Below, piece by piece: positions 28,623 through 61,838 of a stretch of 64,000 nucleotides of DNA. The notes below the pieces were generated by a model. That model was given only the letters and a program-made list of their open reading frames with translations, made no database searches and was not told the origin of the DNA. How positions within the stretch are numbered: the stretch's first letter is position 1; every line of letters starts with the position of its first letter. The translations under genes and the position numbers were made by a program. Location: the sequence record OL631478.1; one strand, 5' to 3'. The stretch comes from Escherichia phage ECML-1.

Positions 28623-28685
28623 TTAGTTGATTGTTAAGTTGTTTGTAAAGAACCCTCAACAGAAGACTCTTTAGAAACTTGGTAG

Positions 28686-28858: not shown

Positions 28859-28874
28859 AAATTTTCTATGTCAA
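28847..28874 (-). promoter_or_regulatory. Candidate sigma70-like promoter (minus strand) overlapping repeat-unit hairpin
   Basis: On minus strand: TTGACA - 16 nt - TATACT, located just downstream of ligase stop; -10 lies within the TACTCACC hairpin arm. Confidence 0.4.
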
Positions 28875-28881
28875 CAACTTT

Positions 28882-30798: not shown

Positions 30799-30816
30799 TT
30801 TTGGTATCTCCAATAC

Positions 30817-31029
30817 TCAGATGTCAATATTAATACGCTCACCCTTAAGGACTCCTGTACGGTCTCTTGCAATCTTACCGTCAACAATAAGAATGTGTGC
30901 AGACCTTAAAGAATCATGATTAAAACCTTTTACGAACTTACTAGGCATCACTACAATAAGCATCTCCTGAATTAACTCTGGAGTGTAGCAATTGCCATGA
31001 AGTTGCTGAATAACGTCTGCAAGTGTCAT
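30817..31029 (-). CDS. Hypothetical protein
   Basis: 70 aa ORF with GGAGG RBS upstream. Confidence 0.4.
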   Translation of the reverse strand: MTLADVIQQLHGNCYTPELIQEMLIVVMPSKFVKGFNHDSLRSAHILIVDGKIARDRTGVLKGERINIDI

Positions 31030-31090
31030 ATAACCTCCTATACAAGATACAGTATAAGGTACTCTTCCATGAGCACCTTGTCAACACTAA

Positions 31091-33790: not shown

Positions 33791-33962
33791 TTTTACTCCC
33801 TCTAAAATCATTAACCTCATACATTACTGCAAAAAATTATAAAAAGCAAGTTGACAATGCACTTGACAAGGTGTTAATCTTTGCGAAGTGGGTTTTTACT
33901 TAAAAGGTTACTTAACAGTTTAACTATACAGATACTTTAAAACTCTTAAAAGATTATTTAAT

Positions 33963-33977
33963 AGCTTTTAAAAAGCT
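33963..33977. promoter_or_regulatory. Palindromic candidate operator in divergent control region
   Basis: AGCTTTT-A-AAAAGCT perfect 7-bp inverted repeat. Confidence 0.35.
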
Positions 33978-33985
33978 TTAAAGTA

Positions 33986-34004
33986 TAACGTATAGAATAC
34001 GTTA
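33986..34004. promoter_or_regulatory. Palindromic candidate operator in divergent control region
   Basis: TAACGTAT-AGA-ATACGTTA perfect 8-bp inverted repeat. Confidence 0.4.
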
Positions 34005-34047
34005 AGATAAAAGATTAAAACTTAATAGTTACTTAAAAGAGGCTTAC

Positions 34048-34470
34048 ATGCAGAAAATGTTTGTTCACCCAGACATAGCTGACTTTGTTAGAGCTTTGCA
34101 GAAGTTGGAAGAACTTGACATTGCTGCTCAACGGGAATATGCTCACCATCACAGGAGAATGGTTGATATACAACATGAAATAGAGTTGTCTGAAAACTAT
34201 GAAGATGACTTAAAATGCTCTGTATTTGAGCATATGAAAGATGTTGCTACAGCTAGACGTAAAGCCAAAGACACAGTTGCTTTACTAGATTCTCTTAAAA
34301 AGAGGTTGCAAAGTGGTACAGACCTGTGTAATCTAGCATCACTGATTAACGATGTCGAAACTTCTTGGGATAGACACTACTATCCACGTTCTGAAAAGAC
34401 ACTTGACTTTTCTTCATCAGAAAACTTAAAATGTTCTAGAAAGAAACTTAACCAACTGAGAGAGAAATAA
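34048..34470 (+). CDS. Hypothetical early protein
   Basis: 140 aa ORF with AAGAGG RBS; first gene of rightward block. Confidence 0.45.
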   Translation: MQKMFVHPDIADFVRALQKLEELDIAAQREYAHHHRRMVDIQHEIELSENYEDDLKCSVFEHMKDVATARRKAKDTVALLDSLKKRLQSGTDLCNLASLINDVETSWDRHYYPRSEKTLDFSSSENLKCSRKKLNQLREK

Positions 34471-38264: not shown

Positions 38265-38520
38265 TAGCTATAAAAGAGAGGGGTTCATACCCTTCTTTGA
38301 AGAAAAAAGTTTAAATAAATTTCAGGAAGAGTGTTTGACAAAGGTTGATAGGTTCTATAGAATGCTCTACATGAAATGTGATGGTGGTGTCGAAGTAGAG
38401 AAAAAGTCCTATCACAATACTGTCACAGTCATCATCACTATACCTGAACATAATATTGGTTGGCTGTTTGTAATAAAAGAAAATGTGTTTGAATATCAAG
38501 TATATCGGAGAATATCATGA
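38227..38520 (+). CDS. Hypothetical protein
   Basis: 97 aa ORF overlapping primase-helicase 3' end. Confidence 0.35.
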   Translation: MRMQMTARSKLSDSYKREGFIPFFEEKSLNKFQEECLTKVDRFYRMLYMKCDGGVEVEKKSYHNTVTVIITIPEHNIGWLFVIKENVFEYQVYRRIS

Positions 38521-38666
38521 AACACTCTAAAGCATTTGAAAAAGTTTTTGGGGATTCCTTAAAAGTCACTGCTGGAAAACCAGCAAAATACTATGAAGAG
38601 AAGCGTGTAAGAACTGGAAAAACTGCACGTAAAGCAGCTTCTAAAGATAAGCACAACTTCCAGTAA
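38517..38666 (+). CDS. Small basic hypothetical protein (49 aa)
   Basis: ATGA start/stop overlap with upstream ORF; Lys-rich; below ORF-track size cutoff. Confidence 0.3.
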   Translation: MKHSKAFEKVFGDSLKVTAGKPAKYYEEKRVRTGKTARKAASKDKHNFQ

Positions 38667-38673
38667 TTAATGT

Positions 38674-38702
38674 TTGACAATAGAGTATCAACAAATTAGA
38701 AT
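38674..38702 (+). promoter_or_regulatory. Candidate sigma70-like promoter upstream of SSB-like gene
   Basis: TTGACA - 17 nt - TAGAAT, ~37 nt upstream of start codon. Confidence 0.45.
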
Positions 38703-38738
38703 TGGTACTCTTCATAAATTGAGATAGAGGTTTAAATA

Positions 38739-39596
38739 ATGTCTAAAGTTGTTAAAATGAAAGCTCCGGTAGAGAAGTACAACGGTACTGAACGTCAAAC
38801 TCTGCGTTACCTTCTGAAAGATGTCTGGTTTTATTACCTGAACACTTCACCACGTCCGGGAAAAGGCAAGTCCATTGATAAGAAATTCCCAGGCAAAGAC
38901 TGTAACTACAGCGTTTCAATTCTGGCAGAAGATGGTAACAAGCTGTTTAAAGAGTTTACTAAGTCTAAGAAAAACCCAGAAGGTTGGGATAAAGTTACCA
39001 CTGAAGCAGTTGATGCAGATGACTTCGAAGAGAAGTTTGGTTGCAAACCACCATTTGAAGCAGACACTTACTACATCTTGAAAGTAAGTCGTGCAGCAGC
39101 TTATAAAGATGGTGCTGTATGGACAGCTAAACAGTCATTCCCTGTAATGCTGATTGAAGAAGTAAATGGTAAGCGTGTAGCTGTTAAGCAGCCGATGAAG
39201 AAAATCAAAGCTCAAGCATCTGACAAACATGAAGATGATAAGAACTATGATGTAATTCATCCAGATATTGCAGTTGGTAACGGTTCTTTTGGTAGTGTGA
39301 TTCTTTCTACTCACTTCTACACTTTTGAGAACAATGTCTTGACAAAGCCTATTCAGGAACAGTTTATCATTGATACTCTTGTACCTTACACTGGTGGTAA
39401 CGGTGCTAACGGTGAACCTGAACTGGATGAAGATGAACTGGCTATGCTTGGTCTTGATGGTGTCGAAGATAACGGTGAAATCACTGAAGAAGACGCAACA
39501 GACCATAAATCTTCGAATGATTCTGATGATGGTGACGATGAAGACTTGCCAGACCCAGATGACGAAGAAGATGAAGACTTCGATACAGAAGACTAA
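38739..39596 (+). CDS. Putative single-stranded DNA-binding protein
   Basis: 285 aa with highly acidic C-terminal tail DDGDDEDLPDPDDEEDEDFDTED; between primase-helicase and exonuclease; own promoter and terminator. Confidence 0.5.
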   Translation: MSKVVKMKAPVEKYNGTERQTLRYLLKDVWFYYLNTSPRPGKGKSIDKKFPGKDCNYSVSILAEDGNKLFKEFTKSKKNPEGWDKVTTEAVDADDFEEKFGCKPPFEADTYYILKVSRAAAYKDGAVWTAKQSFPVMLIEEVNGKRVAVKQPMKKIKAQASDKHEDDKNYDVIHPDIAVGNGSFGSVILSTHFYTFENNVLTKPIQEQFIIDTLVPYTGGNGANGEPELDEDELAMLGLDGVEDNGEITEEDATDHKSSNDSDDGDDEDLPDPDDEEDEDFDTED

Positions 39597-39658: not shown

Positions 39659-40705
39659 ATGGAGAAGTACACATTAACAAAGCTTCCCGATTCAGTTACA
39701 CATATCTTTATTGACTCTGACAGCATTGCCTATAAAGGTGCTTGTGTAGTTGAGAAAGCAAAGTATAAATACGTTAATAAACTCACAGCAGAAGAATCTG
39801 AACCATTTGATAATGCGAAAGATGCTGCAAGATGGTTAGCAGACCAGAGAATCCTTGTGGAAGAGCTTGGCCTGACATTTGATGAAGATGAATGGGAAAG
39901 ACAGACTTGGAAAGAAGCTAAGAGTGAAAAAGAAGCTATCATGGCTACTCAACAGGTGCTTCAGGAATGGCTTAAGGTTGTTGGGAAAGAAAGAACTTGG
40001 GTAGGCTATTTAACAGAGAAAGGTGTGCATAAACATAAAGACATTAAAGGTCTTGAGCACCAATATCAAGGTAACCGTAAAGATGCTGTCACACCAACAC
40101 ACTTAGTCGCTTGTCGTGAATATCTTTTATCCAGACCAGAGTTCAAACTGATTCTTGATGGATTTGAAGCTGACTCTATCGTTATTGCTAAAGCTGAAAA
40201 GATGGGAAAAAAAGCTGCCTTAATGAGTATTGATAAAGACCTTCGCCAAGCTGAAGGTACTTACTGCATTGATATGACCTATGAAAAATCACCTTTAATT
40301 TTCATTGCTGATAACAACGTTGGTGAAATTTGGGATTGTCCAATAAAATCGACACCAAAAGCTAAGAAGACAGTTGGTGTAGGTTTTAAGTTTCTTTGTT
40401 ATCAAGCTGTTGCTGGTGATAATGCGGATAATTATTTTGGTTTAAAGGGTGTTGGTAAGGCTGCTGTGATGAAGGCTCTTGAAGGGAAAACAACTTACAA
40501 AGAGTGTCTTGATGCAATTTACGAGTTATATGCTAAGAAAGACTCCTATACTTATGTATCATGGGATGGTCAGACAATCACCAGAACACCTTTAGAATTA
40601 ATGCAGCAACACTTTTTCTTAGCTTATCAGGAAAGAAACAAGAAAGACGATTTTACTTTTGATAAGTATGGGTGGACACCAAATGTTAACTCAACAAACT
40701 CTTAA
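39659..40705 (+). CDS. 5'-3' exonuclease / flap endonuclease (FEN family)
   Basis: N-terminal acidic cluster IFIDSDSIAYKGA and H3TH-like AGDNADNYFGLKGVGKAAVMK. Confidence 0.7.
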   Translation: MEKYTLTKLPDSVTHIFIDSDSIAYKGACVVEKAKYKYVNKLTAEESEPFDNAKDAARWLADQRILVEELGLTFDEDEWERQTWKEAKSEKEAIMATQQVLQEWLKVVGKERTWVGYLTEKGVHKHKDIKGLEHQYQGNRKDAVTPTHLVACREYLLSRPEFKLILDGFEADSIVIAKAEKMGKKAALMSIDKDLRQAEGTYCIDMTYEKSPLIFIADNNVGEIWDCPIKSTPKAKKTVGVGFKFLCYQAVAGDNADNYFGLKGVGKAAVMKALEGKTTYKECLDAIYELYAKKDSYTYVSWDGQTITRTPLELMQQHFFLAYQERNKKDDFTFDKYGWTPNVNSTNS

Positions 40706-41174
40706 AGAATACCTGCACTATGACCCCGAAACAGGGGTCTTTACTTGGATTAAGAAGTCTGCTAAGCACACAAAAATTGGTTCTGTTGCAGGTACAAACT
40801 TAAGGGGATACATCAGAATCTATTTGTTTGGTAAGGGTTATTATGCACATACACTGGCTGTTCTGTATATGGACGGTTACCTTCCTGAGTGTGTTGACCA
40901 TAAAAACCATGTAACCCTAGATAATCGCTGGATAAATCTTAGGGCATGTACGTTATCAGAGAACCAATGTAATAGGTTACTCAATAAGAATAATAAATCA
41001 GGTGTTAAAGGTGTGTACTACAAAAAACAGTATGGTAAGTGGGCTACACAGATAACTTTTAAGAAGAGAGTTTACTTCTTCGGCAACTATGACACGATTG
41101 CTGAAGCAGCAGAGGTTGTAAATAGGGAACGCCAACGTTTACACAGAGAGTTTGCTAATAAAGGTGATGAATGA
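40659..41174 (+). CDS. HNH homing endonuclease with AP2-like DNA-binding domain
   Basis: YAHTLAV...CVDHKNHVTLDNRWINL (HNH) and NKSGVKGVYYKK...WATQI (AP2-like); paralog of 53570..54061. Confidence 0.65.
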   Translation: MISMGGHQMLTQQTLKEYLHYDPETGVFTWIKKSAKHTKIGSVAGTNLRGYIRIYLFGKGYYAHTLAVLYMDGYLPECVDHKNHVTLDNRWINLRACTLSENQCNRLLNKNNKSGVKGVYYKKQYGKWATQITFKKRVYFFGNYDTIAEAAEVVNRERQRLHREFANKGDE

Positions 41175-41671
41175 GAAAAATAAAAGGTTTTGGCAATTGC
41201 CCTGAATATGGTCACTGGATTTCACTATGTGGTGAAGTTGACCCAGCAAAGCACTTTGGTTTTGTCTACCTAGTGTACTGTAAAAAGACTGGACAGTACT
41301 ATTTGGGTAAGAAACAGCTTAATAGTGTGACCAAAAGAAAAGTTGCTGGGAAGACTCGGAAGAAGGTAGTCACTAAGGAGAGTGATTGGATGACTTACGA
41401 AACCTCTTCTGAGTATATTAAAAAAGATATTGAGAGCTTTGGAAAAGAATTTTTTGACTTTTACATTATTCAGACCTACTACACAAAAGGTGGCCTAGTC
41501 TATGGTGAAGCAAACCTTCAACATAAATTCGATGTAATGACAAAAAGGATTGACTCGAAGCTCAGACTCTTCTACAATGCCAATATTGCAGCAATTAAGT
41601 TTATTACTAAAGAAACTTATGAAGATGCTGAAAAAAGAATCCATAAGGTAATGAAAGCAAATTGTGCTTGA
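41171..41671 (+). CDS. Putative GIY-YIG-like endonuclease
   Basis: FVYLVYCKKTGQYYLGKK resembles GIY-(N10)-YIG motif; weak. Confidence 0.35.
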   Translation: MRKIKGFGNCPEYGHWISLCGEVDPAKHFGFVYLVYCKKTGQYYLGKKQLNSVTKRKVAGKTRKKVVTKESDWMTYETSSEYIKKDIESFGKEFFDFYIIQTYYTKGGLVYGEANLQHKFDVMTKRIDSKLRLFYNANIAAIKFITKETYEDAEKRIHKVMKANCA

Positions 41672-47210: not shown

Positions 47211-47409
47211 ACGCATTTGGGAAGGTTTGGTTGTCGATGCACCAGCTATTGTGATTGGTATGCTGATTGTTAACCTATTTACTGATTTTGAACAAGGTTC
47301 ATTGTTTGGGGCCATGTTACTATGGGTTATCTTTGAAATATTAGAGATACAGTTAGGTATCACTGAAAAACTGAGAAAACTCTTTGCGAAGTTTTCTAAA
47401 AAGATTTAA
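47203..47409 (+). CDS. Small hydrophobic membrane protein
   Basis: 68 aa, two hydrophobic segments. Confidence 0.35.
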   Translation: MLKRIWEGLVVDAPAIVIGMLIVNLFTDFEQGSLFGAMLLWVIFEILEIQLGITEKLRKLFAKFSKKI

Positions 47410-47417
47410 AATGAAAG

Positions 47418-47438
47418 GGTCTCTTCGGAGACCTTTTT
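47418..47438 (+). terminator. Rho-independent terminator
   Basis: GGTCTC-TTCG-GAGACC hairpin followed by TTTTT. Confidence 0.6.
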
Positions 47439-47457: not shown

Positions 47458-49602
47458 ATGAACAAAGTACAGATTATTAAAAAGAATGGCTCACTTGAAG
47501 AACCTGATATCAAAAAAGTTTTAGCAGCAGTCACAAAGTCAGCTAACAGAGTTGGTTATAAAGAGCTTCCACCAGATGTTACTCAAGCTCTTGAGTCAGC
47601 ATTTATGAGGATTCTGGTAAAGTCCACTAAGCAGAATAATTTGCTAATTTCTGTAAATGATATTCACAGTATTGTTGAAGGTGCTTTGGCAGAGGTCAAT
47701 CACGAGATTTATGAGTCTTACTCAACATACAGAAATTACCGTAAAGAGGTTGCTCAAAATTGGGACGAACTCTACCAGAAGACTAAAGATACACTCTTCT
47801 TAGGTGACCGTGAAAATGCTAACTTTGACAGCAGTTTAATTTCTACGAAAGGTTCAATTATCCGTGGTTACCTGACTAAAGAAATATTTAAACAGTATCA
47901 TCTAACACCAGAGGAACTTGAAGCCATTGAGAAAGGCTTTATCTATATCCACGATTTGAGAGACCTGATTTTTGGTGGTATTAACTGTTGCCTGTTTGAC
48001 ATTGGTAAAGTACTAAAAGGTGGCTTTGAAATGTCCGGCATTGAGTACTGTGAACCTAAATCTGTACTGTCAGCGTTGCAGGTTATTGGTGACGTAGTAC
48101 TTTCAGCAACTGCACAGCAATTTGGTGGTTTTACTTTAGCAGAGATTGATAAGGTACTTGTACCGTATGCTAAGAAGTCTCTACGCTATCATGCTGAGAA
48201 AGCATCATCTTATGGTATTCCTAAAGAGCATTACCACAATTATGTAATGGAGCAGCTACAGATTGAACTAACTCAAGGTTTCCAGTCACTTGAAATGAAA
48301 CTAAATACCGTACCTTGTAGCCGTGGGGATTTTGCATTTACAACTTTGACATTCGGGTTACTTGACTCAGATATGTCTAATGAAGATAACCGACTGCAAT
48401 ATATGATTGCAAGTACTCTCCTAGATGTTCGTATGAATGGACAAGGTAAGAGCAAGAAACCTGTTGTATTCCCTAAACTGGTTTATATTTATGACCAGAA
48501 GAGACATAATGAGAATATCTGTCAAGGCCACCTGTACAGTAAAGCTATAGAGTGTTGCTCTAAAGCGATGTATCCAGATTTCTTAAGTGTATCTGGTCAT
48601 GGTGCTGTAGCAGAAGCTTTTGAGCGTTCTGGCAAGGTAATCTCGCCGATGGGTTGTAGAGCCTTCTTATCTCCATATCTTAACGAGGATGGGGAAGAGT
48701 TTTACGTTGGTCGTGCTAACATTGGTGCTGTATCTTTGAACTTGCCAATGATTTACCAGTACTCTAAAGAGAATGGTTTAGATTTCTGGAAAGAGCTTGA
48801 TAAGTACCTAGAGATGATTCGCAACTTCCACAAGAAACGCTACGAAATGATTGCTAATATGCCAGCAAGTTCTAACCCTCTTGCGTTCACACAAGGTGGT
48901 CTGTACAAAGGAACTAAGAAACCTACTGACAAGGTTGGTTGGGATATTGTGAAGTCCTTCACAGCTTCTTTTGGTGTTACTGCGCTTGATGAGTTGTCTG
49001 TTCTTGCTGAAGGTAAACGACTTCATGAAGTTGGAAGCTATAGTTTTGCATATGATGTTCTGGCATACATTAACATGAAAACCGAAGAGTTTAAAAATGA
49101 AGATGGCTTCTTATATGCCGTCTATGGTACTCCAGCAGAATCACTTTGTGGAACTCAGTTAAAACAGTTCAGAGATATGTTTGGCGTCATTAAAGGTGTC
49201 TCTGACAAGGAATACTTTACAAACAGTTTCCATATGAATGTTGCAGCAGACATCTCACCATTTGAGAAGCAGGACTTAGAAGAGCCATTCTTCCATATCT
49301 GTAGAGGCGGCAGAATCCAGTATGTAAGGGTAGCTAACCCAGAAAACTTGCCAGCACTTAAAAGTTGTATTACCAGAGGGATGTTGAAGGGTTTTTATCA
49401 GGGACTTAACTTTGACTTAGCAATCTGTGAACATTGTGGTAACAGACCAAAGGCTGATGTTGAAGAATGTGAGGTTTGCCATTCACACGACATCTCTGTG
49501 ATTAACAGGGTGTGCGGATATCTTGGGTGGACTAAGATTAAAGGTGAATCTCGAATGAATGATGCAAAAATCGCTGAGATTCGTGACAGAATTTCTATGT
49601 AA
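47458..49602 (+). CDS. nrdD: Anaerobic ribonucleoside-triphosphate reductase (class III)
   Basis: C-terminal glycyl-radical motif RVCGYLG and Cys cluster CEHCGN...CEVC; N-terminal ATP-cone-like. Confidence 0.85.
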   Translation: MNKVQIIKKNGSLEEPDIKKVLAAVTKSANRVGYKELPPDVTQALESAFMRILVKSTKQNNLLISVNDIHSIVEGALAEVNHEIYESYSTYRNYRKEVAQNWDELYQKTKDTLFLGDRENANFDSSLISTKGSIIRGYLTKEIFKQYHLTPEELEAIEKGFIYIHDLRDLIFGGINCCLFDIGKVLKGGFEMSGIEYCEPKSVLSALQVIGDVVLSATAQQFGGFTLAEIDKVLVPYAKKSLRYHAEKASSYGIPKEHYHNYVMEQLQIELTQGFQSLEMKLNTVPCSRGDFAFTTLTFGLLDSDMSNEDNRLQYMIASTLLDVRMNGQGKSKKPVVFPKLVYIYDQKRHNENICQGHLYSKAIECCSKAMYPDFLSVSGHGAVAEAFERSGKVISPMGCRAFLSPYLNEDGEEFYVGRANIGAVSLNLPMIYQYSKENGLDFWKELDKYLEMIRNFHKKRYEMIANMPASSNPLAFTQGGLYKGTKKPTDKVGWDIVKSFTASFGVTALDELSVLAEGKRLHEVGSYSFAYDVLAYINMKTEEFKNEDGFLYAVYGTPAESLCGTQLKQFRDMFGVIKGVSDKEYFTNSFHMNVAADISPFEKQDLEEPFFHICRGGRIQYVRVANPENLPALKSCITRGMLKGFYQGLNFDLAICEHCGNRPKADVEECEVCHSHDISVINRVCGYLGWTKIKGESRMNDAKIAEIRDRISM

Positions 49603-49610
49603 AACTTGAC

Positions 49611-49651
49611 AAGGTGATGTGGGTCTTGATAGGCTTGCATCACCTTTTTTA
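49611..49651 (+). terminator. Candidate terminator after nrdD (long-loop hairpin)
   Basis: AAGGTGATG / CATCACCTT stem with 18-nt loop followed by TTTTTT; overlaps a TTGACAAGGTG motif. Confidence 0.45.
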
Positions 49652-51505: not shown

Positions 51506-51826
51506 ATGAGCAAAGTTTATAACACTCGTAAATTACAGATTTTCGTACTGTGCCAGTTTATGGCTAAAGAATACAACTTCTACTATTGTGGTACAGGTTT
51601 TATTAGCGATGATGATGGCTCATACCTCCCATTCAAAGAAGCTGTAAAACTCTTTAATGAAGAGAAAAGCTCTAAGAAAGATATTGAAAAGGTTAAGCTA
51701 ACCTACAGCAAGAAAGATAAGAAGATTATCTGCCTAGATAACTTTGTGAAAGTTACTGGAGAAGCAAAAGAGTTTATGGATGAGAGTGATATTTCATTCA
51801 CAAGCATCTTGAAAGTAGCTCAGTAA
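51506..51826 (+). CDS. Hypothetical protein
   Basis: 106 aa ORF. Confidence 0.4.
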   Translation: MSKVYNTRKLQIFVLCQFMAKEYNFYYCGTGFISDDDGSYLPFKEAVKLFNEEKSSKKDIEKVKLTYSKKDKKIICLDNFVKVTGEAKEFMDESDISFTSILKVAQ

Positions 51827-51839
51827 ACAGATACTATAA

Positions 51840-51867
51840 GGGGACTGTAAAGGTTCCCTTTTTATTT
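51840..51867 (+). terminator. Rho-independent terminator
   Basis: GGGGAC-TGTAAAG-GTTCCC hairpin (one G-U pair) followed by TTTTTATTTT. Confidence 0.55.
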
Positions 51868-51877
51868 TGGAGGTAAA

Positions 51878-52679: not shown

Positions 52680-53561
52680 ATGAAAACTGTTATTGAAGCC
52701 GTCATCACCGCACAAGAGAAATTCTTCCACACAGAAAAATTTAATATCATCCAATTCCCATCTGGAGAAATTGGTGGAAACTTCTCTGAAGATTTTGTTA
52801 AGTTTGCTGAGCGTAATGCTGGTAAGATTGATAATGTTATATTTACTGTACAGGGGTATGACAAAGATACACTGTTTGCATTAGCTTTGGCTAAGGATGC
52901 CGTTGACAGTCTTGTTCCCCAGAAATCAGCGATGAAAACCGTTGTTTTCGGGTTCTTACCAAATGCTCGATATGACCGCCACATGTTCAAAGGTGATGCA
53001 GCAGCACTGAAAGTCTTTGCCAACCTTGTTAATGCAATGGGTTTTGATGCAGTATGTGCTCTTGACCCTCACAGTAATGTTGCAGAAAACTTATTTAAGT
53101 GTTTTCAGAGCATGAAGCAAAAAGATGTGGCAGTACACTTTGCAAGTGACCCACGCATTGATTTCTTAGTAGCCCCAGATGCAGGTGCAGCTAAGAAGAC
53201 TGAAGATGCCGCTAAAGAGGTAGATAAACCATATATCACAATGTCTAAGGTGCGCAATCTTAAGACTGGAGAAATCACTGGTATGCGAATCCTTGATGAT
53301 GTTGATTTGACAGATAAAACTGTCATGATTCTTGATGATATTTGTGATGGTGGTCGAACCTTCGTAGAAGCAGCGAAACATCTTCGTGAAGCAGGTGCAA
53401 AACGTGTGGAACTCTATGTAACACATGGTATCTTCTCTAAAGGTGTTGAAAACCTTCTTGACAATGGTATTGACCATATTTACACTACAAACTCTTTAGG
53501 CGAAGCTAAAGACCGTGGCTTAACACACTATGGTCAAGTTACTGTAGCAACCATTGATTAG
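52680..53561 (+). CDS. prs: Ribose-phosphate pyrophosphokinase (PRPP synthetase)-like protein; possibly ADP-ribose pyrophosphokinase of a NAD+ reconstitution pathway
   Basis: PRPP/phosphoribosyl-binding loop MILDDICDGGRTF; 293 aa; adjacent to NAMPT-like gene. Confidence 0.7.
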   Translation: MKTVIEAVITAQEKFFHTEKFNIIQFPSGEIGGNFSEDFVKFAERNAGKIDNVIFTVQGYDKDTLFALALAKDAVDSLVPQKSAMKTVVFGFLPNARYDRHMFKGDAAALKVFANLVNAMGFDAVCALDPHSNVAENLFKCFQSMKQKDVAVHFASDPRIDFLVAPDAGAAKKTEDAAKEVDKPYITMSKVRNLKTGEITGMRILDDVDLTDKTVMILDDICDGGRTFVEAAKHLREAGAKRVELYVTHGIFSKGVENLLDNGIDHIYTTNSLGEAKDRGLTHYGQVTVATID

Positions 53562-53569
53562 GTAACAGT

Positions 53570-54061
53570 ATGAATAAGGGTTATTTTGAAAAATACCTAA
53601 TATATGAACCAGATACAGGTTTATTAATTTGGAGAGTAACCCTTTGCAGTACCGCTATTGCTGGTAATGTGGCTGGCACAAGGTCTAAGAAGGGTTATAT
53701 CCAAGTCCAGATAAATAAGAATAGGTACTATGCACATAATATTGCATGGATTATGTCTGGAGGTGAGATACCAAGTGGATATGAGATAGACCACATAGAC
53801 CTTGATAAAGCTAATAATAAGTTGGAGAACTTAAGACTTAGCACAAAGTCACAAAATCAGAGGAATAGAGGTATATACAAGAATAATAAAACTGGTGTGA
53901 AGGGTGTAAGTTTTTGTAAACAAACAGGTCTTTACAAAGCAAGAGTCACGCTTTACCATAAAGAATACTTTTGTGGAAGATTTAAAACGGTAGAAGAAGC
54001 AAAAGAAGCTGTAATTAAAAAGCGAATAGAACTTCATGGTGAGTTTGCAAGACATAACTAA
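53570..54061 (+). CDS. HNH homing endonuclease with AP2-like domain (second paralog)
   Basis: YAHNIAW...EIDHIDLDKANNKLENL and NKTGVKGVSF...LHGEFA; parallels 40659..41174. Confidence 0.65.
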   Translation: MNKGYFEKYLIYEPDTGLLIWRVTLCSTAIAGNVAGTRSKKGYIQVQINKNRYYAHNIAWIMSGGEIPSGYEIDHIDLDKANNKLENLRLSTKSQNQRNRGIYKNNKTGVKGVSFCKQTGLYKARVTLYHKEYFCGRFKTVEEAKEAVIKKRIELHGEFARHN

Positions 54062-54075
54062 GAGAGAGATAAAAT

Positions 54076-55857
54076 ATGAGTAAGTCACTTTACGCAGTAC
54101 CAGCAGGTCTTAATGCAGATGCTTACAAGGCATCACATATATATCAGTATCCAGATGCTACGCAATATCTTATGTTGAACCTGACACCACGTAGTGACAA
54201 ATGGTTTAACAGTCCATTAGCAATTGATGGTGTAGTCGCTTTTGGTATTCAACGTTTTGTTAAAGATTACTTGATAGACCACTGGAATGCCACCTTCTTT
54301 GAACGTGACAAAAAAGAAGCAATTGACGAAATCTTAGAAGTCATGAACGGTGTTCTGGGCAAAGATGCTATTGGTCGAGAGCATTGGGAAGCACTTCACG
54401 ACTTAGGTTATCTGCCAGTCGAAGTATACGCTGTAGAAGAAGGCACAGTTGTTCCTATGCGTGTCCCAATGATTGTCTTCCAGAACACTGTTTCAGGTTT
54501 CCATTGGGTAGCAGGTTATCTGGAAGATGCTTTCTCTGCTGAGATTTGGAAGGCTTGCACTATTGCAACTATTGCATTGCATTACAAACGCATCTGTAAG
54601 AAGTGGGCTGACCTTACTTGTGACAACGACTTGCATCTGCCCTATCAGTGTCATGACTTTGCTATGCGTGGTATGTCAGGCTTTACTGATGACGCATTTA
54701 ATGCTGTAGGTCACTTAACCAGCTTTAAAGGGACTGATAGCTTCCCTGCTGTATACACGGCTAAACGAATCTATGGACAGTCCTACCCAATCTCTGATAT
54801 TGGTAGTTCTGTACCAGCCACTGAGCACTCTGTAATGTGTGCAAACATTGCTTGGGAAGGTGGTAATGAGTTGATTGAAGAAGAAAGACGCTTTAAAGGT
54901 GAGTTACAAACCTTCCGTCGTTTCTTAACAGAAACTTACCCAACAGGTATTGCAAGCATTGTTTCAGATACTTATAACTTCTGGAGAACTGTGTCAGAAA
55001 TCTTACCAGCACTTCGTAAAGAAATTATGGAACGTGATGGCAAACTGGTAATTCGCCCTGACTCTGGAGACCCTGTACATATTGTCACAGGTTATAAAGC
55101 AATCCACTTAGAATGTGCTAAGAAGGCTTATTACGAGCACCTAAGCAAGCTGGAAGCCAGTGACACAATGTTGAATGCTGTTCTGAACATGAAGCTTGAG
55201 AACATCAACTATGGTATTGCTGGATGGCTACTGTCAGAAGGCTACGAGATGGTTGTTGACAGAGAAGACTTTGAAGTTGCTGATACAGTGATGTTGAAAA
55301 ATGCTTATATGGTTGGTTCTGCAAACGTTGTAACACGTCCTGTAGCTGAGATTGATGGAGCTATTAAGACACTGTACAACATCTTTGGGGGAACTATTAA
55401 CTCTAAAGGCTTTAAAGTACTGGATGAGCATATTGGACTTATTTATGGCGACTCTATCACGTTGGAACGTGCAAATGAAATACTGAAGCGTTTGTATGAA
55501 ATGGGTTTTGCAAGCTCTAACGTAGTGTTTGGTGTAGGTTCTTACACTTACCAGTACATGACTCGTGACACCTTTGCATTTGCTGTCAAAGCAACCCTTG
55601 CAAGCATTGGTGGTAAAGAGATTATGCTTGCAAAAGACCCTAAAACAGATAGTGGTGTTAAGAAGTCTGCTTTTGGTGGTGTAGCACCTATGTGGGATGG
55701 TGAAAATCTGAAAGCTGTAGATGGCTATGGGTTCCAGAGCTTTGCAGATGCACTTGAACATCCAGCTTGTGCTTTACGTCTAGTCTTTAGCGACTCTGAG
55801 CAGTTCGGCTACACAACTCTTGGTGATATTCGAAATAATATTGACAAGCAGCTTTAA
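54076..55857 (+). CDS. nadV: Nicotinamide phosphoribosyltransferase (NAMPT/NadV)-like protein
   Basis: VIRPDSGDP and IYGDSITLERA motifs typical of NAMPT/NAPRTase family; 593 aa (longer than typical ~480 aa). Confidence 0.75.
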   Translation: MSKSLYAVPAGLNADAYKASHIYQYPDATQYLMLNLTPRSDKWFNSPLAIDGVVAFGIQRFVKDYLIDHWNATFFERDKKEAIDEILEVMNGVLGKDAIGREHWEALHDLGYLPVEVYAVEEGTVVPMRVPMIVFQNTVSGFHWVAGYLEDAFSAEIWKACTIATIALHYKRICKKWADLTCDNDLHLPYQCHDFAMRGMSGFTDDAFNAVGHLTSFKGTDSFPAVYTAKRIYGQSYPISDIGSSVPATEHSVMCANIAWEGGNELIEEERRFKGELQTFRRFLTETYPTGIASIVSDTYNFWRTVSEILPALRKEIMERDGKLVIRPDSGDPVHIVTGYKAIHLECAKKAYYEHLSKLEASDTMLNAVLNMKLENINYGIAGWLLSEGYEMVVDREDFEVADTVMLKNAYMVGSANVVTRPVAEIDGAIKTLYNIFGGTINSKGFKVLDEHIGLIYGDSITLERANEILKRLYEMGFASSNVVFGVGSYTYQYMTRDTFAFAVKATLASIGGKEIMLAKDPKTDSGVKKSAFGGVAPMWDGENLKAVDGYGFQSFADALEHPACALRLVFSDSEQFGYTTLGDIRNNIDKQL

Positions 55858-55871
55858 AAGTATATGATAAG

Positions 55872-55893
55872 AGGCTCCTACGGGAGCCTTTTT
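55872..55893 (+). terminator. Rho-independent terminator
   Basis: AGGCTCC-TACG-GGAGCCT hairpin followed by TTTTT. Confidence 0.6.
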
Positions 55894-55910
55894 AATTTCT
55901 GGAGAAGATT

Positions 55911-56246
55911 ATGAAAATCAAAGAGATGAACATCAACATCGTCTTAGAGGAACGTTGGGAGAACATCAAGAAACCTGAAAATGGTCATAAGTTCCTTAAC
56001 AAAATTTTAGTAGCAGCTAAAGAAGAACTGACTGGTAAGATTGCAGCAGCAATCACAATAAAGGTCTGTGTAAAAGGTCTTCCAGACAATCACCAATTTG
56101 CACTTGACGAGTTTAAAGAAAGCTTCTACAATCCAAATAAACAGATGCTTGAAAGTAACTTTGCAGTATCTACAAGTATCGTCCATGACAGAAGCTTTAT
56201 CCTTTACAAGAATATGAGAGGTGAGTCATGCAAGCATATTGGATAG
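55911..56246 (+). CDS. Hypothetical protein
   Basis: 111 aa ORF. Confidence 0.4.
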   Translation: MKIKEMNINIVLEERWENIKKPENGHKFLNKILVAAKEELTGKIAAAITIKVCVKGLPDNHQFALDEFKESFYNPNKQMLESNFAVSTSIVHDRSFILYKNMRGESCKHIG

Positions 56247-56404
56247 AAATTTTACTGTCACTTGGTGGCGTAGCAGTGTTTGTTTACCTTCTTTGTAAGT
56301 ACTATGCAGAGCACAAAAAATGTGACTACTGTAATGGGGAAGGTTATACAAGAGCAGGTTGTTGCCCTATGTGTGGTGGTTCTGGTAAAATGTTTAACAA
56401 GTAA
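56228..56404 (+). CDS. Small membrane-anchored zinc-ribbon protein (58 aa)
   Basis: N-terminal hydrophobic helix then CDYC...CPMC; below ORF-track cutoff. Confidence 0.3.
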   Translation: MQAYWIEILLSLGGVAVFVYLLCKYYAEHKKCDYCNGEGYTRAGCCPMCGGSGKMFNK

Positions 56405-56432: not shown

Positions 56433-58799
56433 ATGCGCATGGTAAACGACCACGCAGAAGTGATTAAGAGTTCAACTTCTTTAGAGACGTCTCAAGCACA
56501 GATTACAATGACACCTGAGATGTTCAGCCTTTTGAGTTCTGGTGTATATACCTTTAAAGAAAGGGCAGTGATTCGTGAACTGTCATGTAACGCAGTAGAT
56601 GCTCAGAAAGAAGCTGGAAAAGAGAACATCCCATTCCATGTGCATTTACCTACTCGTTTTGAGCCTTACTTCGAAGTTCGTGATTTTGGAACTGGATTGA
56701 CTCATGATAAAGTTATGAGTTTGTACCTAAACTATGGAGCTTCTACGAAGAATGACTCTAATGACTACATTGGTGCAATGGGTATCGGCTCAAAGTCACC
56801 ATTTGCAATTGCTCAGTCATTCACAGTATCTAGCTATGTTGATGGTGTTGTTAATAAGTACTCTGTTTATCTTGAGAATGGTATCCCTCAAGTAACTAAG
56901 CTGACAACTAACCCAACAAAAGAACCTAATGGTTTAGCTGTACGTGTGGCGGTTGCTGACCACCGTATCTCAAAGTTCTTTGAAGAAGCTGGGAATGTGT
57001 ACTCATACTTCACTGTAAAACCAGAAAGTAATATTGAGTACGACGATGTATTAGCAGATATGAACGTCATTGCCCGTGAAGAAGGTGTTTATGATGCCAT
57101 GATTCATAAGCACAGCTGGCGTTCTAGTGATAACAGGACAGAGTTTAATGTGGTGATGGGTAACATTGCCTACCCTGTTAACATGGAAGCATTACTTGGT
57201 GATGATTTCTTCAAAGTATTGCCAGAATTTTTCCGTAGGAGCGTAGACCTTGTAAACATCTACATGCCTATTGGTTCAGTCGCTATTGCAGCTTCTCGTG
57301 AAGCATTGCAGATGAATGACACGACAAAAAATGTTATCATTGAGGCTACTAAAAAGATAACTGAAGCAATTACAAAGGATGTTATCAAGAAAGTTAACAG
57401 TCAACCTACACTCATGGATGCTGCACAGGCTTATGCTGAGTTACGTTTGAACTCACGAGAGATGTTTAATGCTGTGTGTCCAAAGTTAGAGTGGGGAGGC
57501 GTTAAGCTTGATTCTCTGGAAGAAGAATTACTAAACATTCGTCGTGGAATTATCTACGCAGAAGACGGCTCAGTCATTTATGAACGTGACGGTAAAGGTA
57601 ATATTAAGGTTGATAGGAACGGAAACAACATCCCTAAAGTAGATTATCTTTATGACCCAGTTGCTTATGTCAAGTTCAACTCTTTAGAGAGTAAGATTCG
57701 TGCAACAGCACTTTCCTACACTCAAGAGGCAAGTATGTTCAATATCTTTGGCGCAATGCGTAAAAGCCAAATTGAACAGTTTTTGTTTGTTATAAATGAC
57801 CGTCGCAATAAAAATGGTACTGAGAAGACTGTAGGACGCAACCAAATCTTGCGTGGTGCATGTCGAGACTATGCCAGTGAGTCAAGTCTGTTTCACAGAT
57901 ACAATGGTATTGTCTTTGTATTCTCGACTGAAAAAGAGTTAGATGACTTAATCAATCTGCACAAACTTGATAAAAGCTTGTTAAAGATTGTGAAAATGTC
58001 TGATAAGGAACACCATTACCAGCGTAAAGAAGCTGTAAGAGGTGTTGTAAAACTCTGGAAAGCTGTTCCAGCAGAAGGTGTAGCTTCCTATAAAGAGGTT
58101 TCAGAGGACTTTGATACAATTGAAGAGCCTCAGCTTTACATTAAGGCAGTTGGTGATACAGTTGATGGTAGATGTTTTTGCTCATCTCCAGAAGATGTAG
58201 CTAAGTCAGTTGCTAATGTTACAGGTAAGACAGTCTATGTTTTCCGAAAAGCAAATTGGAAAAAGATACCAGAAGATTGGATTGAAGTAGATGAGAAACT
58301 CTTGAACGACAGCTTAACTGATGTTCACTGGATTAACCATAACAGATATATGACGCGTATCTATATGAATGGTGTCCTTGACCTTACAAGCAGTTGGATT
58401 ATTGCCAGAAACTTTACGTTTAATAACAGGAAGATTTCTCGCGGGTATTGTTATTCAAGGGATACTATTAAGACAATCTTCTTAGAAGGGAATGAAGATG
58501 CTGTTGAGGCAATGTTTGGTAAGATTCAGTATGTGGCTGCACCGTTTGCATACACTTACACTATCAGTGTTCTTCAGGATTTGAAGTCATGCCTTGATAA
58601 TGACACAAAACTGTACAAAAAGATTAAGAAAGCAGGTGACCGCATGGTTATCAAGCTGACAAACTATCTTTCAAAAAGAAAACAAGAAAACTTCTTGCTT
58701 TCACACTTAGATTGGAATAAAGTATCACCTATCGAAGTGAGTAAGTTTTTAGGCTTTGATGTGAAGTGTGTTCCAGAAGGGACTACAATTTACGATTAA
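56433..58799 (+). CDS. rIIA: rIIA-like protein
   Basis: N-terminal region FSLLSSGVYTFKERAVIRELSCNAVDA resembles T4 rIIA N-terminus (from memory); 788 aa; followed by rIIB-like gene. Confidence 0.65.
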   Translation: MRMVNDHAEVIKSSTSLETSQAQITMTPEMFSLLSSGVYTFKERAVIRELSCNAVDAQKEAGKENIPFHVHLPTRFEPYFEVRDFGTGLTHDKVMSLYLNYGASTKNDSNDYIGAMGIGSKSPFAIAQSFTVSSYVDGVVNKYSVYLENGIPQVTKLTTNPTKEPNGLAVRVAVADHRISKFFEEAGNVYSYFTVKPESNIEYDDVLADMNVIAREEGVYDAMIHKHSWRSSDNRTEFNVVMGNIAYPVNMEALLGDDFFKVLPEFFRRSVDLVNIYMPIGSVAIAASREALQMNDTTKNVIIEATKKITEAITKDVIKKVNSQPTLMDAAQAYAELRLNSREMFNAVCPKLEWGGVKLDSLEEELLNIRRGIIYAEDGSVIYERDGKGNIKVDRNGNNIPKVDYLYDPVAYVKFNSLESKIRATALSYTQEASMFNIFGAMRKSQIEQFLFVINDRRNKNGTEKTVGRNQILRGACRDYASESSLFHRYNGIVFVFSTEKELDDLINLHKLDKSLLKIVKMSDKEHHYQRKEAVRGVVKLWKAVPAEGVASYKEVSEDFDTIEEPQLYIKAVGDTVDGRCFCSSPEDVAKSVANVTGKTVYVFRKANWKKIPEDWIEVDEKLLNDSLTDVHWINHNRYMTRIYMNGVLDLTSSWIIARNFTFNNRKISRGYCYSRDTIKTIFLEGNEDAVEAMFGKIQYVAAPFAYTYTISVLQDLKSCLDNDTKLYKKIKKAGDRMVIKLTNYLSKRKQENFLLSHLDWNKVSPIEVSKFLGFDVKCVPEGTTIYD

Positions 58800-58804
58800 A
58801 GTGT

Positions 58805-58834
58805 TTGACAAGGGGCTTCAAAGCCCCTTAGAAT
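58805..58834 (+). promoter_or_regulatory. Candidate sigma70-like promoter with hairpin-forming spacer upstream of rIIB-like gene
   Basis: TTGACA - 18 nt - TAGAAT; spacer contains GGGGC-TTCAAA-GCCCC stem-loop. Confidence 0.45.
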
Positions 58835-58878
58835 AGCCTCACAAATTGATTGATTAACTAACAAGAGAGAGTAATAAG

Positions 58879-59988
58879 ATGACTACTAAAACTAAAGCAC
58901 AGATTGACGCAGAAATTTACAAACTGGTTAAAGAAGGTAAGCTGACCAAAACAGCTATTGCACAGAAATTTAACACTTCAACCCGTTCAGTTGGTCGTGC
59001 TGTAGAGCGTCATGAAGCAACCTTAAAAGGGAAGAAGAAGGTGACTTCTACACCAGCTACGAAGACTTTGAAGCAAGTTGCTAAGACTTTTAAAAAGAAA
59101 GCTGGCAAACCAGTTGAAAAGGTCGTTAAAGACGCTGTACAGAAAGCTCCAGTAAATAAACTGCACGAAGCTATGCAGAAAGATGACAAGATTGAGTACA
59201 TGATTACTGGTGATTCTGTAATTATGACTTATGGTTCAGAATCTGAAATTGTTGAGTCTACTCATCCGAACTATCAAGAGATTGTAGTTCATGTTGTGAA
59301 AGGTGAGTTCAAGAAAGCATTTGAACTGATGAACATTCGTAAGTCTATCGAAAACTTCACTCAGGGTGCTATCACAATCAAAGGCGACAAGCTATTCTAC
59401 GGTGCTGTTGAGATGCGTTCTACTCTGGTTGACCGTATTCTTCACATGATGAAAACTGGCGATAAAGGTTTTGAACGACTTGTAATGTTCTTCGAAAAAC
59501 TGATGGAAAACCCATCTAAAGATTCTGTAGAACAACTTTGGGGATTTGTATCTCACCTTGATGTTGAAATTGATGAAGAAGGCTACATCATTGGTTGGAA
59601 GAAAGTCTCTACTCGTGAAGGCAAGCTGGTTGACTCTCACACCTACAAAGTGCCTAATGATTTGGGTAACATTGTAGAAATGCCACGTTGGATGGTTGAT
59701 AATAACCGTAACGTAACTTGCTCTCAAGGTCTTCATGTTGGTGCTTGGGATTATGTTCGTTGCTTCTCAGGTGATACAATCCTGAAGGTTCGCGTACATC
59801 CACGAGATGTTGTATCTGTTCCAACTGATTACAACGATATGAAGATGCGTTCCTCTCGTTATGAAGTTGCAGCAATCGTTGATAATCAACGTAAAGTGCT
59901 GGAAGCATGGGACGGTAAGACTGAAGCTTTGCATGTCATCGTTGGCACTGCTGGTGAACTCATCTCTCAACGTAAACGTGAAATCTAA
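58879..59988 (+). CDS. rIIB: rIIB-like protein
   Basis: 369 aa gene immediately downstream of rIIA-like gene; N-terminal HTH-like segment; assignment by synteny. Confidence 0.5.
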   Translation: MTTKTKAQIDAEIYKLVKEGKLTKTAIAQKFNTSTRSVGRAVERHEATLKGKKKVTSTPATKTLKQVAKTFKKKAGKPVEKVVKDAVQKAPVNKLHEAMQKDDKIEYMITGDSVIMTYGSESEIVESTHPNYQEIVVHVVKGEFKKAFELMNIRKSIENFTQGAITIKGDKLFYGAVEMRSTLVDRILHMMKTGDKGFERLVMFFEKLMENPSKDSVEQLWGFVSHLDVEIDEEGYIIGWKKVSTREGKLVDSHTYKVPNDLGNIVEMPRWMVDNNRNVTCSQGLHVGAWDYVRCFSGDTILKVRVHPRDVVSVPTDYNDMKMRSSRYEVAAIVDNQRKVLEAWDGKTEALHVIVGTAGELISQRKREI

Positions 59989-60004
59989 TAAGTAATTTCT
60001 TAAA

Positions 60005-60028
60005 AGGCTGCTTCGGCGGCCTTTTTTA
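60005..60028 (+). terminator. Rho-independent terminator
   Basis: AGGCTGC-TTCG-GCGGCCT hairpin followed by TTTTTT; consensus TATAAT -10 box 24 nt downstream at 60052-60057. Confidence 0.6.
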
Positions 60029-60088
60029 TTTGTATTTTGTGCAGAGTGCTGTATAATTGTTGTCACGATAAACTAAACAGGAGAACCA

Positions 60089-61310: not shown

Positions 61311-61786
61311 GAGAAGAACTTATGAACAATATCATTACGGTAGCACTGGACGATACGGCAAACAAATCTGAAGTAGTTCGTAAAATGATTCAAGGTAACT
61401 TTGAAGGTAAAATTTTCCGTGCTGTTAATGTAAAAGCTGATGGTAGCATTCGCGAATATCGTGCATTGTTGAACGTTAAGAAGCACGTAAAAGGTGTTGG
61501 TTCAACGACTGCACACAAAGAAAACCTGATGACTATCTATGATATGGGTAAGGCTTCAGAGTTAGGTGCTGAAGGTATCGTTAAAGAAGGTGCTCCGTAT
61601 CGCTCTTTCAATCTGGAAACTACTCTTATGCTTTCCTTTACAAGTGGTTCCAAAACAATCACTTATCTCTTTACTGATGCTGCAACGGTATCTGCTATTA
61701 AGGATAGCACTGTCAAAGCTGGCGTAGTTGCTGCTGCAAAAGCTTCTTCGATGGCTGCGAATATCCTTGCTAAAGTCCTCGGTTAA
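61307..61786 (+). CDS. Hypothetical protein (likely start ATG 61322)
   Basis: ORF followed by strong terminator. Confidence 0.45.
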   Translation: MREELMNNIITVALDDTANKSEVVRKMIQGNFEGKIFRAVNVKADGSIREYRALLNVKKHVKGVGSTTAHKENLMTIYDMGKASELGAEGIVKEGAPYRSFNLETTLMLSFTSGSKTITYLFTDAATVSAIKDSTVKAGVVAAAKASSMAANILAKVLG

Positions 61787-61797
61787 GGTTAAGATAC

Positions 61798-61819
61798 AGG
61801 CTCCTTCGGGAGCCTTTTT
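61798..61819 (+). terminator. Rho-independent terminator
   Basis: AGGCTCC-TTCG-GGAGCCT hairpin followed by TTTTT. Confidence 0.65.
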
Positions 61820-61838
61820 CATTTTAGGAGATTGTTAA

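Follow-up and report, generated by a model that had tools for sequence, protein, structure and literature searches.

Why should a promoter and a stem-loop occupy the same bases between two genes? The question is raised by the 79-nucleotide (nt) intergenic region between rIIA and rIIB of Escherichia phage ECML-1 (sequence record OL631478.1), within which positions 58805-58834 combine a TTGACA-type promoter with a hairpin in its spacer. An original prediction, made from the letters of this 64,000-nt stretch (the window, as we call the whole of the DNA that was analysed), had grouped this site with several others as PeSL-like composites of a TTGACA-type promoter and a stem-loop. Both the sequence and its comparison with relatives support their description as sigma-70-type promoters joined to stem-loops in the manner of the PeSLs of T4-like phages. 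In our reading, to which we assign a probability of roughly 0.6, about ten junctions in the early and middle regions carry a compact form of punctuation, in which a sigma-70-type promoter overlaps a hairpin that would be formed only by transcripts arriving from upstream.

Two layouts can be distinguished among the ten composites, the coordinates of which are collected in Table 1. In layout A (sites 47384, 51809, 55841 and 61767), the -10 hexamer ends 0-1 nt ahead of an intrinsic terminator, and in layout B (sites 22906, 28874(-), 31084(-), 38674, 49606 and 58805) the hairpin lies within the spacer or encloses the -10. A stable stem-loop overlaps the promoter in 10/10 composites, and six of the sites pair a perfect TTGACA with a -10 matching the consensus at 4-5 of its six positions, at a spacer of 16-18. 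If transcription starts ~7 nt after the -10, the predicted +1 falls downstream of, or inside, the hairpin in all ten, and therefore the complete hairpin should arise only in RNA that enters from upstream.

Presumably, the phage relies upon the sigma-70 RNA polymerase of its host, and each composite would halt, or at least attenuate, transcription from upstream and start it anew at the same spot. In layout A, upstream transcripts would terminate at the hairpin. Since the -10 ends 0-1 nt before the terminator, the predicted +1 lies inside the 5' stem arm, and transcripts started locally, which would have 4-6 bp left of the 7-10 bp stem or none at all, are expected to continue past it. In layout B, the position of the hairpin in the spacer or around the -10 means that the new transcript would be without at least the 5' arm. 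The layout B hairpin at 49606 would be a full terminator, and the other five are more likely to serve as an attenuator or as the protective 3' end of the upstream mRNA; that some might be RNase III-like sites is, like these roles, a guess. What we infer from the DNA itself is that the promoters are active, where +1 lies and that transcripts terminate or escape. Stopping and restarting at one site had already been proposed in the original prediction and the geometry of all ten composites fits, although only some of the hairpins are intrinsic terminators: a G+C-rich stem followed by a U-tract is found at 47414, 49611, 51838, 55869 and 61798, whereas the U-tract is missing at 58810, 38682, 22916, 31056-31079 and 28817-28860, the stems of which are followed by AGAAT, TCATA, TGATG, ATACT and CATCA, respectively.

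Several published observations on the related phage Felix O1 are compatible with such internal promoters. The Felix O1 genome contains neither an RNA polymerase gene nor one for any known modifier of host promoter specificity (PMC3185647). By reverse transcription PCR (RT-PCR), its rIIB transcript is highest at 10 min and that of rIIA at 25 min, ORF78 (downstream of 22906) peaks at 25 min and the upstream ORF76/77 at 60 min, while nrdD peaks at 60 min and the downstream ORF120 at 25 min (PMC3185647). Such timing agrees with internal promoters at 58805, 22906 and 49606. Furthermore, the genomes of Felix O1 and VpaE1 yield phage in an E. coli cell-free extract (PMC10933291), in keeping with initiation of transcription by the host polymerase.

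Conservation, placement and structure of the composites

The case for the composites is built upon observed sequences and structures, their placement and conservation, the covariation of their stems and a bias toward the sense strand. Orthologous junctions were extracted from ~90 related loci of IMG/VR together with Felix O1 and LF82P5. In seven multi-genus alignments, conservation reaches 99.8% at positions 1, 2 and 6 of the -10 and 97% in the -35, with corresponding values of 90% for -10 positions 3-5 and 86% for other intergenic columns (p = 5e-9). This profile has the pattern expected of sigma-70 recognition. At 51809, 55841, 61767 and 38674, the -10 is even exchanged for another -10-like hexamer (TATTAT, TATGAT, TAATAT, TAAGAT or TAACAT) at fixed spacing, while the surrounding sequence has diverged. 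Distant relatives have TATGAT at 51809 at unchanged spacing within an otherwise diverged spacer; at 55841 the hexamer is TATGAT or TATTAT, the spacer of 16 is held and the stretch from the stop codon to the -10 diverges; at 61767 it is TAAGAT, TATTAT, TAATAT or TATGAT, with T-A-x-x-A-T throughout; and at 38674 TTGACA is invariant across genera next to a -10 of TAGAAT, TAAGAT, TAACAT or TAATAT. The promoter at 22906 is conserved across genera with a variable spacer, that at 28874(-) is conserved wherever its junction is present, and the 31084(-) element is kept in all relatives despite HNH or small genes inserted on either side.

The hairpins are retained alongside the promoters. Between rIIA and rIIB, TTGACA, the GGGGCT...AGCCCC stem and TAGAAT/TAAAAT are kept at 76-99% rIIB amino-acid identity while the flanks diverge, the spacer being 17 in more distant genera and 18 in the window; a relative with 60% rIIB identity has TTGACA-N17-TCTAAT and a different hairpin over the -10. 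At 49606, the loop GGGTCTTGATAGGCTT is invariant and the lower stem covaries: pairing holds in 98.3% of alignment cells, both partners are substituted in two pairs, and several pairs are G·U in some sequences and A-U in others. Between genera, the A-T pair at the base of the 38682 hairpin gives way to G-C, and a T·G pair alternates with T-A or C-G. The latter covariation was read straight from the sequences, as the ungapped MAFFT alignment shifts the 3' arm by one base. Across the ten composites, hairpin stability ranges from -9.8 to -23.7 kcal/mol, with z-scores of -1.5 to -5.3 relative to shuffled sequences. The sense RNA is more stable than the antisense in 8/10 hairpins, with two ties and no reversals (for instance, -21.9 vs -10.2 kcal/mol at 49611-49650, -22.5 vs -12.8 at 22916-22962 and -12.1 vs -8.0 at 31056-31079), and this bias favours a role in RNA over symmetric DNA operators. 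A search of the whole window with Rfam at gathering thresholds returned no RNA family match.

Promoter and hairpin sites were collected by combining a position-weight scan, folding and a listing of all intergenic regions. Consensus matches by themselves prove nothing here, because they occur at chance level: the window holds 70 TTGACA where 69 are expected, and 43 generic promoter-like matches were found at 22-41 kb vs 49 expected in this AT-rich genome. Generic promoter counts were accordingly dropped as evidence. The non-random feature of the TTGACA matches is their placement. Intergenic DNA (2372 nt) contains eight, all on the transcribed strand, and by our own estimate from the window-wide rate ~1.3 would be expected. 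Local structure is far more stable at high-scoring intergenic promoters than at equal-scoring matches inside genes (Mann-Whitney p = 0.0008), and at 4 of the 15 terminators a promoter -10 ends 0-1 nt before the stem, an arrangement with a null frequency of <=0.008 each for an equal score at the same offset.

A number of points weigh against this reading, beginning with the chance-level counts just given. The -10 elements TACCTT (31084) and TAGGCT (49606) are weak, the 28817-28860 hairpin is not significant relative to shuffles (z -1.5), and the roles of the five layout B hairpins without a U-tract are ones that we infer. The -35 hexamers of 55841, 51809, 47384 and 61767 lie in codons, where conservation could be protein-driven. 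At three layout A sites, a locally started transcript could still form a stem of 4-6 bp ahead of the U-tract, so its escape from termination is not assured. Short intergenic regions would crowd signals together in any case, and we found no published mapping of transcription start sites, 3' ends or RNA-seq for any Felixounavirus in the literature.

Several of these points are shared by a simpler account, in which the hairpins alone are functional, as terminators or stabilisers of mRNA 3' ends, and the promoter hexamers are chance matches or by-products of codons and stop codons that initiate nothing. It would explain why promoter-like matches are not enriched overall, why equally high position-weight scores occur inside genes and why four of the -35 hexamers are coding. 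It does not sit well with key -10 positions that are invariant amid diverging noncoding bases or with hexamers swapped at fixed spacing, nor with the sense-strand orientation of all intergenic TTGACA, the promoters abutting 4/15 terminators (null <=0.008 each) and the differences in RT-PCR timing across rIIA/rIIB and ORF77/78. We regard this account as unlikely.

Individual junctions and their surroundings

The sites listed in the original prediction are all present as described except for "31047(-)", a digit slip for the element at 31074-31084(-). The TTGACA-N18-TAGAAT promoter at 58805-58834 does contain its spacer hairpin, with a stem at 58810-58829. Initiation from TTGACA-N16-TATGAT at 55841-55868 had been placed inside a terminator, and the terminator at 55869-55893 indeed follows directly, with the predicted +1 in its 5' arm. 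Likewise, TTGACAAGGTG at 49606, which had been taken for the left arm of the post-nrdD hairpin, leads into the 16-bp stem, after which comes a T-tract, and TTGACA-N16-TATACT at 28847-28874(-) overlaps a hairpin at 28817-28860. Two further sites had been said to have no clear -10. This holds for 33863, which lies within the spacer of an upstream promoter, 33851, but not for 31084(-), which has TACCTT at a spacer of 17. A plausible -10 is also present at 49606 (TGaTAGGCT at a spacer of 18).

Table 1. Coordinates in the window of the promoters and hairpins discussed and of the genes and blocks around them (gene map drawn from the Felix O1 annotation)
Position	Strand	Feature	Details
58805-58834	+	rIIA/rIIB promoter TTGACA-AGGGGCTTCAAAGCCCCT-TAGAAT (layout B)	spacer 18
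58810-58829	+	hairpin AAGGGGCT-TCAA-AGCCCCTT in spacer	perfect 8-bp stem, 4-nt loop; -12.5 to -14.2 kcal/mol; no U-tract
49606-49635	+	promoter-like TTGACA-N18-(TGa)TAGGCT downstream of nrdD (layout B)	score 12.8; -10 inside hairpin loop
49611-49650	+	terminator hairpin, 16 bp + T-tract	-22.5 kcal/mol, z -5.3; four sense-strand G·U pairs
38674-38702	+	promoter TTGACA-N17-TAGAAT upstream of ORF104 homologue (layout B)	11/12 matches
38682-38711	+	10-bp hairpin enclosing -10	-9.8 kcal/mol; no U-tract
22906-22934	+	promoter TTGACT-N17-TAATAT after tail-fibre gene (layout B)	
22916-22962	+	bipartite hairpin (12 bp, internal loop, 7 bp)	-10 at loop start; -23.7 kcal/mol, z -5.25; no U-tract
28847-28874	-	promoter TTGACA-N16-TATACT downstream of ligase gene (layout B)	11/12 matches
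28817-28860	-	hairpin, 5' arm overlapping -10	-15.3 kcal/mol, z -1.5, weakest of set; no U-tract
31056-31084	-	promoter TTGACA-N17-TACCTT downstream of DNA polymerase gene (layout B)	score 13.0
31056-31079	-	9-bp hairpin AAGGTGCTC-ATGGAA-GAGTACCTT over spacer and -10	-15.8 kcal/mol, z -3.2; no U-tract
47384-47412	+	promoter TTGCGA-N17-TAAAAT (layout A)	score 11.5, null fraction 0.003
47414-47438	+	intrinsic terminator AAAGGGTCTC-TTCG-GAGACCTTTTT	1 nt after -10; -15.8 kcal/mol, z -4.2; Felix O1 t116
51809-51837	+	promoter TTGAAA-N17-TACTAT (layout A)	score 10.6, null fraction 0.004
51838-51868	+	intrinsic terminator AAGGGGACT-GTAAA-GGTTCCCTTTTTATTTT	abuts -10; sense -11.4, antisense -5.1 kcal/mol; Felix O1 t124
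55841-55868	+	promoter TTGACA-N16-TATGAT (layout A)	score 13.4, null fraction 0.001; -35 in final nadV codons
55869-55893	+	intrinsic terminator AAGAGGCTCC-TACG-GGAGCCTTTTT	0 nt after -10; -16.6 kcal/mol, z -4.45
61767-61795	+	promoter TTGCTA-N17-TAAGAT (layout A)	score 9.4, null fraction 0.008
61798-61819	+	intrinsic terminator AGGCTCC-TTCG-GGAGCCTTTTT	Felix O1 t5
33851-33880	+	rightward promoter TTGACA-N18-(TGt)TAATCT, divergent pol/ORF97 region	score 12.4
1-23544	+	structural block	
23581-33820	-	block in which the DNA polymerase gene (31091-33820) comes last	
33820-34048		divergent intergenic region	
34048-64000	+	block of replication, nucleotide-metabolism and early genes	
47458-49602	+	nrdD	
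54076-55857	+	nadV	
56433-58799	+	rIIA	
58879-59988	+	rIIB	

One feature of the list was an extended -35, TTGACAAGGKG, which occurs four times in the window where 0.09 are expected, a count reached in 0/100 shuffles. An independent extended -35 or protein-binding box was rejected as the main reading of this 11-mer. At three of its four sites (31084, 49606 and 58805) AAGGKG forms the 5' hairpin arm, the majority of hairpins in the genome begin with A(2-4)GG, and positions 7-8 of the TTGACAAGG box vary in relatives without compensation. Based upon the first two observations, TTGACAAGG reads as a -35 meeting a stem, and TTGACAAGGKG for the most part marks the point where a -35 hexamer joins an AAGG-initiated stem and is not a motif in itself.

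The fourth copy, TTGACAAGGTG at 33863-33873, sits in the spacer of the rightward 33851 promoter in the divergent region between the polymerase gene and ORF97, within a block that is conserved across genera. The same region (33821-33880) contains a conserved double box, TTGACAATGCACTTGACAAGGTG, that is paralogous to TTGACAAAGCACTTGACAAGGTA of the "P41" region in the other divergent region of Felix O1 (21515-21541 of the locus designated L003); a sequence homologous to "P41" had been described as absent there (PMC3185647). Back to back with the rightward promoter is a leftward one, TTGCTT-17-TAATGT at 33849-33821(-), with T-A-x-x-G-T kept in relatives. A further regulatory function might, speculatively, be served by the box CTTGACAAGGT, which the two divergent start regions have in common with three of the junctions.

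Some of the composites also resemble one another. Pairwise local alignment of eleven 100-nt elements stayed mostly at the null level, and a repeat family among the composites was consequently discarded. There are two exceptions. The composites at 38674 and 58805 (38644-38743 vs 58775-58874) share the upstream flank, the -10 and the initial transcribed sequence (TAA..TGTTTGACAA / TTAGAAT / CTCAYAAATTGA) around unrelated hairpins, with an alignment score of 19 vs a null 99th percentile of 15. Those at 55841 and 61767 (55888-55935 vs 61785-61831) are ~80% identical over 48 nt and have in common the -10, GGCTCC-loop-GGAGCC, T5, ATTT and GGAG. The GGCTCC...GGAGCC core is also found at 23550 and in Felix O1 terminators t5, t35 and t79/t80; since it recurs at several terminators, it may be regarded as a small repeated terminator cassette. 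Upstream of the -35, the A+T content of 22 nt is ~59-73% by hand count at 31084, 28874, 38674 and 58805 vs 61% for the window, i.e. modestly above background, and AAAGT(G/T)(T/C) recurs there at some sites.

Related arrangements exist elsewhere in the window. At 20472-20495, after a tail-fibre gene, TTTACA abuts a GGGGCT-TTAT-AGCCCC terminator with no -10, a form resembling the TTTACA + GGGGC repeats of the Felix O1 ORFan region (L003 8637, 9239 and 10306). Behind rIIB lies a plain terminator-then-promoter junction (60002-60057), where the T-tract of the terminator at 60002-60027, which is Felix O1 terminator t2, runs into the -35 of TTGTAT-N16-TATAAT (60030-60057). The TATAAT is invariant in 25 unique sequences, and the -35 is TTGAAA in distant relatives. 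Strong sense-strand promoter-like sequences with no associated hairpin are found inside genes at 38335-38363 (TTGACA-17-TAGAAT, which ties for the top score in the window), 38158-38186 (TTGACC-17-TATACT, with the same hexamers and spacing as Felix O1 "P102") and 56362-56391 (TTGCCC-18-TGgTAAAAT, ending ~40 nt (42) ahead of the rIIA start). These three may be real internal promoters or chance matches.

Possible roles in recombination and at the DNA level

The window is 95-98% identical to LF82P5, KhF3, Felix O1 and others in a mosaic pattern, and its assignment to the genus Felixounavirus (Felix O1/wV8-like myoviruses) was supported by both megablast and blastn. Indels among relatives adjoin the composites at 31084, 49606, 55841 and 28874, and none were found at 58805, 38674 or 22906 among ~20-50 loci. 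A second rival explanation could draw upon this: the main evolutionary role of the composites might be that of PeSL-type mobile linkers, providing homology for inserting, deleting or swapping cassettes with their own promoter and terminator. The four adjoining indels argue for it, together with the ~48 nt common to 55841 and 61767, the 57-bp TTTACA + GGGGC composites in the Felix O1 ORFan region and a 1.37-kb two-gene cassette beside 28874 that is bounded by repeated hairpin units, within one of which the LF82P5 junction lies. However, most copies in the window share <=12 nt, the inserted HNH genes have no duplicated flanking elements (one copy is present, with the junction at the stop codon), three of the composites show no indels, and insertions land in intergenic DNA anyway. 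As a principal role this seems distinctly improbable. The related suggestion of the original prediction, that the composites are portable regulatory cassettes, gains something from recombination between the hairpin units beside 28874, but it can be upheld only faintly for the set as a whole because the copies share too little sequence, and flanks are not duplicated.

Those hairpin units are the best case for recombination. Four noncoding units of ~90-130 nt each occupy 27064-27574 and 28619-28882 (sense -), each consisting of a hairpin, CACTTAAG...CTTAAGTG, and then a ~50-nt G/T-rich tract with GGTNNN periodicity. They bracket two genes (27574-28619) missing from Felix O1 and LF82P5. The latter is without window positions 27410-28777 (1.37 kb), and its junction falls inside a hairpin copy, as expected of recombination between units.

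The HNH endonuclease genes at 40659-41174 and 53570-54061 vary in presence among close relatives, LF82P5 being without window positions 40752-41177 and 53560-54062. Duplication of an element at the HNH insertions beside 31084 and 49606 was considered and rejected, as the element occurs there only once, with the upstream stop codon as the site of the junction. In other genomes, related HNH genes inserted after the polymerase gene all contain a hairpin-like sequence, GACCCCGAAACAGGGGTC, within the first ~90 nt of the insert as measured from the junction flank, which is probably coding sequence for a YDPETG motif.

Some inverted repeats do appear to fold as DNA. Among close relatives, the loops at 58818-58821 (TCAA/TTGA) and 55879-55882 (TACG/CGTA) occur as exact reverse complements with no intermediates, which points to repeated loop inversion by DNA folding of the inverted repeat rather than stepwise substitution. 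These inversions, the 20-bp perfect palindrome at a classical operator position in the 58805 spacer and the transcriptional regulator ORF85 of the Felix O1 annotation could be marshalled for a third rival, in which the repeats act as DNA, either as operators bound by a dimeric regulator of phage or host origin or as supercoiling-sensitive cruciforms that switch promoters, but we consider it very improbable, given that the palindromes are unrelated between sites, so that no single protein could read them all, that the stems keep complementarity rather than sequence, that 8/10 hairpins depend upon G·U pairs and lose stability on the opposite strand, and that the TTGACAAGG box is itself variable.

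Comparison with known systems

Phages of the Felix O1 type are widely used in Salmonella and E. coli typing, in biocontrol and, recently, in cell-free rebooting. Overlap of promoters with hairpins would offer a testable answer to the question of how transcription passes their many terminators, namely re-initiation at the terminator itself. About ten precise coordinates are supplied here for the mapping of transcription start sites and 3' ends. For phage engineering, the sites mark insertion points that should spare the expression of neighbouring genes as well as short sequences to keep intact. Otherwise, the finding is fairly ordinary: an arrangement of T4-like phages is extended to another subfamily, as PeSL-like composites in the Ounavirinae, with no new mechanism.

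Felix O1 has the same genome type as the window, and its terminators t2, t5, t116 and t124 correspond to 60002, 61798, 47414 and 51838. Its description (Whichard et al. 2010, PMC3185647) left the passage of transcription through many terminators unexplained, lists only five predicted promoters (P11, P41, P45, P102 and P117), none of them at composite junctions, and reports repeats of 57 bp and 39 bp merely as direct repeats. Overlap between promoters and hairpins is not described there or in the other searchable Felixounavirus papers, and promoters go unmentioned in the papers on wV8 and VpaE1.

The closest parallel is provided by the PeSLs of the T4-like phages RB49/phi1, PST and nt-1 (Arbiol et al. 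2010, PMC2839356; Comeau et al. 2014, PMC4122927). A PeSL comprises a sigma-70 consensus promoter, an AT-rich upstream tract and a stem-loop that lies between the -35 and -10, covers either of them or follows directly upon the -10; each genome has ~50, which for the most part occupy ORFan-rich regions and are similar over ~100 bp, and they have been shown to possess promoter and terminator activity and to recombine into mini-circles (PMC2839356, PMC4122927). Like PeSLs, the composites join a near-consensus sigma-70 promoter to a stem-loop, with the placements in the spacer, over the -10 and just downstream all matching PeSL subclasses. They also include GGGG...CCCC stems, as at 58805, occupy the gap from a stop codon to the following ribosome-binding site and have the same proposed role of stopping upstream transcription and restarting it; some copies adjoin indels. 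Unlike PeSLs, they belong to the Ounavirinae and number ~10 in 64 kb vs ~50 per T4-like genome; they form no repeat family and share no ~100-bp sequence, most copies having <=12 nt in common; most sit in conserved replication and nucleotide-metabolism modules rather than in ORFan-rich hyperplastic regions; several of their hairpins are canonical U-tract terminators abutting the -10; and they are known from sequence, whereas PeSL activity and mini-circles were shown by experiment. The most PeSL-like in appearance are the 57-bp repeated composites of TTTACA and a GGGGC hairpin between small genes of the Felix O1 ORFan region, outside the window.

It is conceivable, although we hold this only tentatively, that the Ounavirinae possess a rule-based punctuation, with hairpins upstream of or across +1 (10/10 here), insulated cassettes and repeated signals serving as recombination linkers, and that PeSL-type shuffling has thereby arisen independently outside the T4 group. 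The linker versions in such a scheme might, just as tentatively, be the GGCTCC terminator cassettes, the CACTTAAG units beside 28874 and the ORFan TTTACA + GGGGC repeats.

The composites may further be compared with ordinary junctions of a terminator followed by a promoter and with the "morons" of lambdoid phages, in which a gene carries its own promoter and terminator. In all of these cases a block of genes is insulated by a terminator and has its own promoter. In contrast to plain junctions, the signals of the composites physically overlap, the promoter preceding or surrounding the hairpin and the same bases serving both. Morons are defined by the inserted gene, whereas the composites described here are defined by the overlapping signal.

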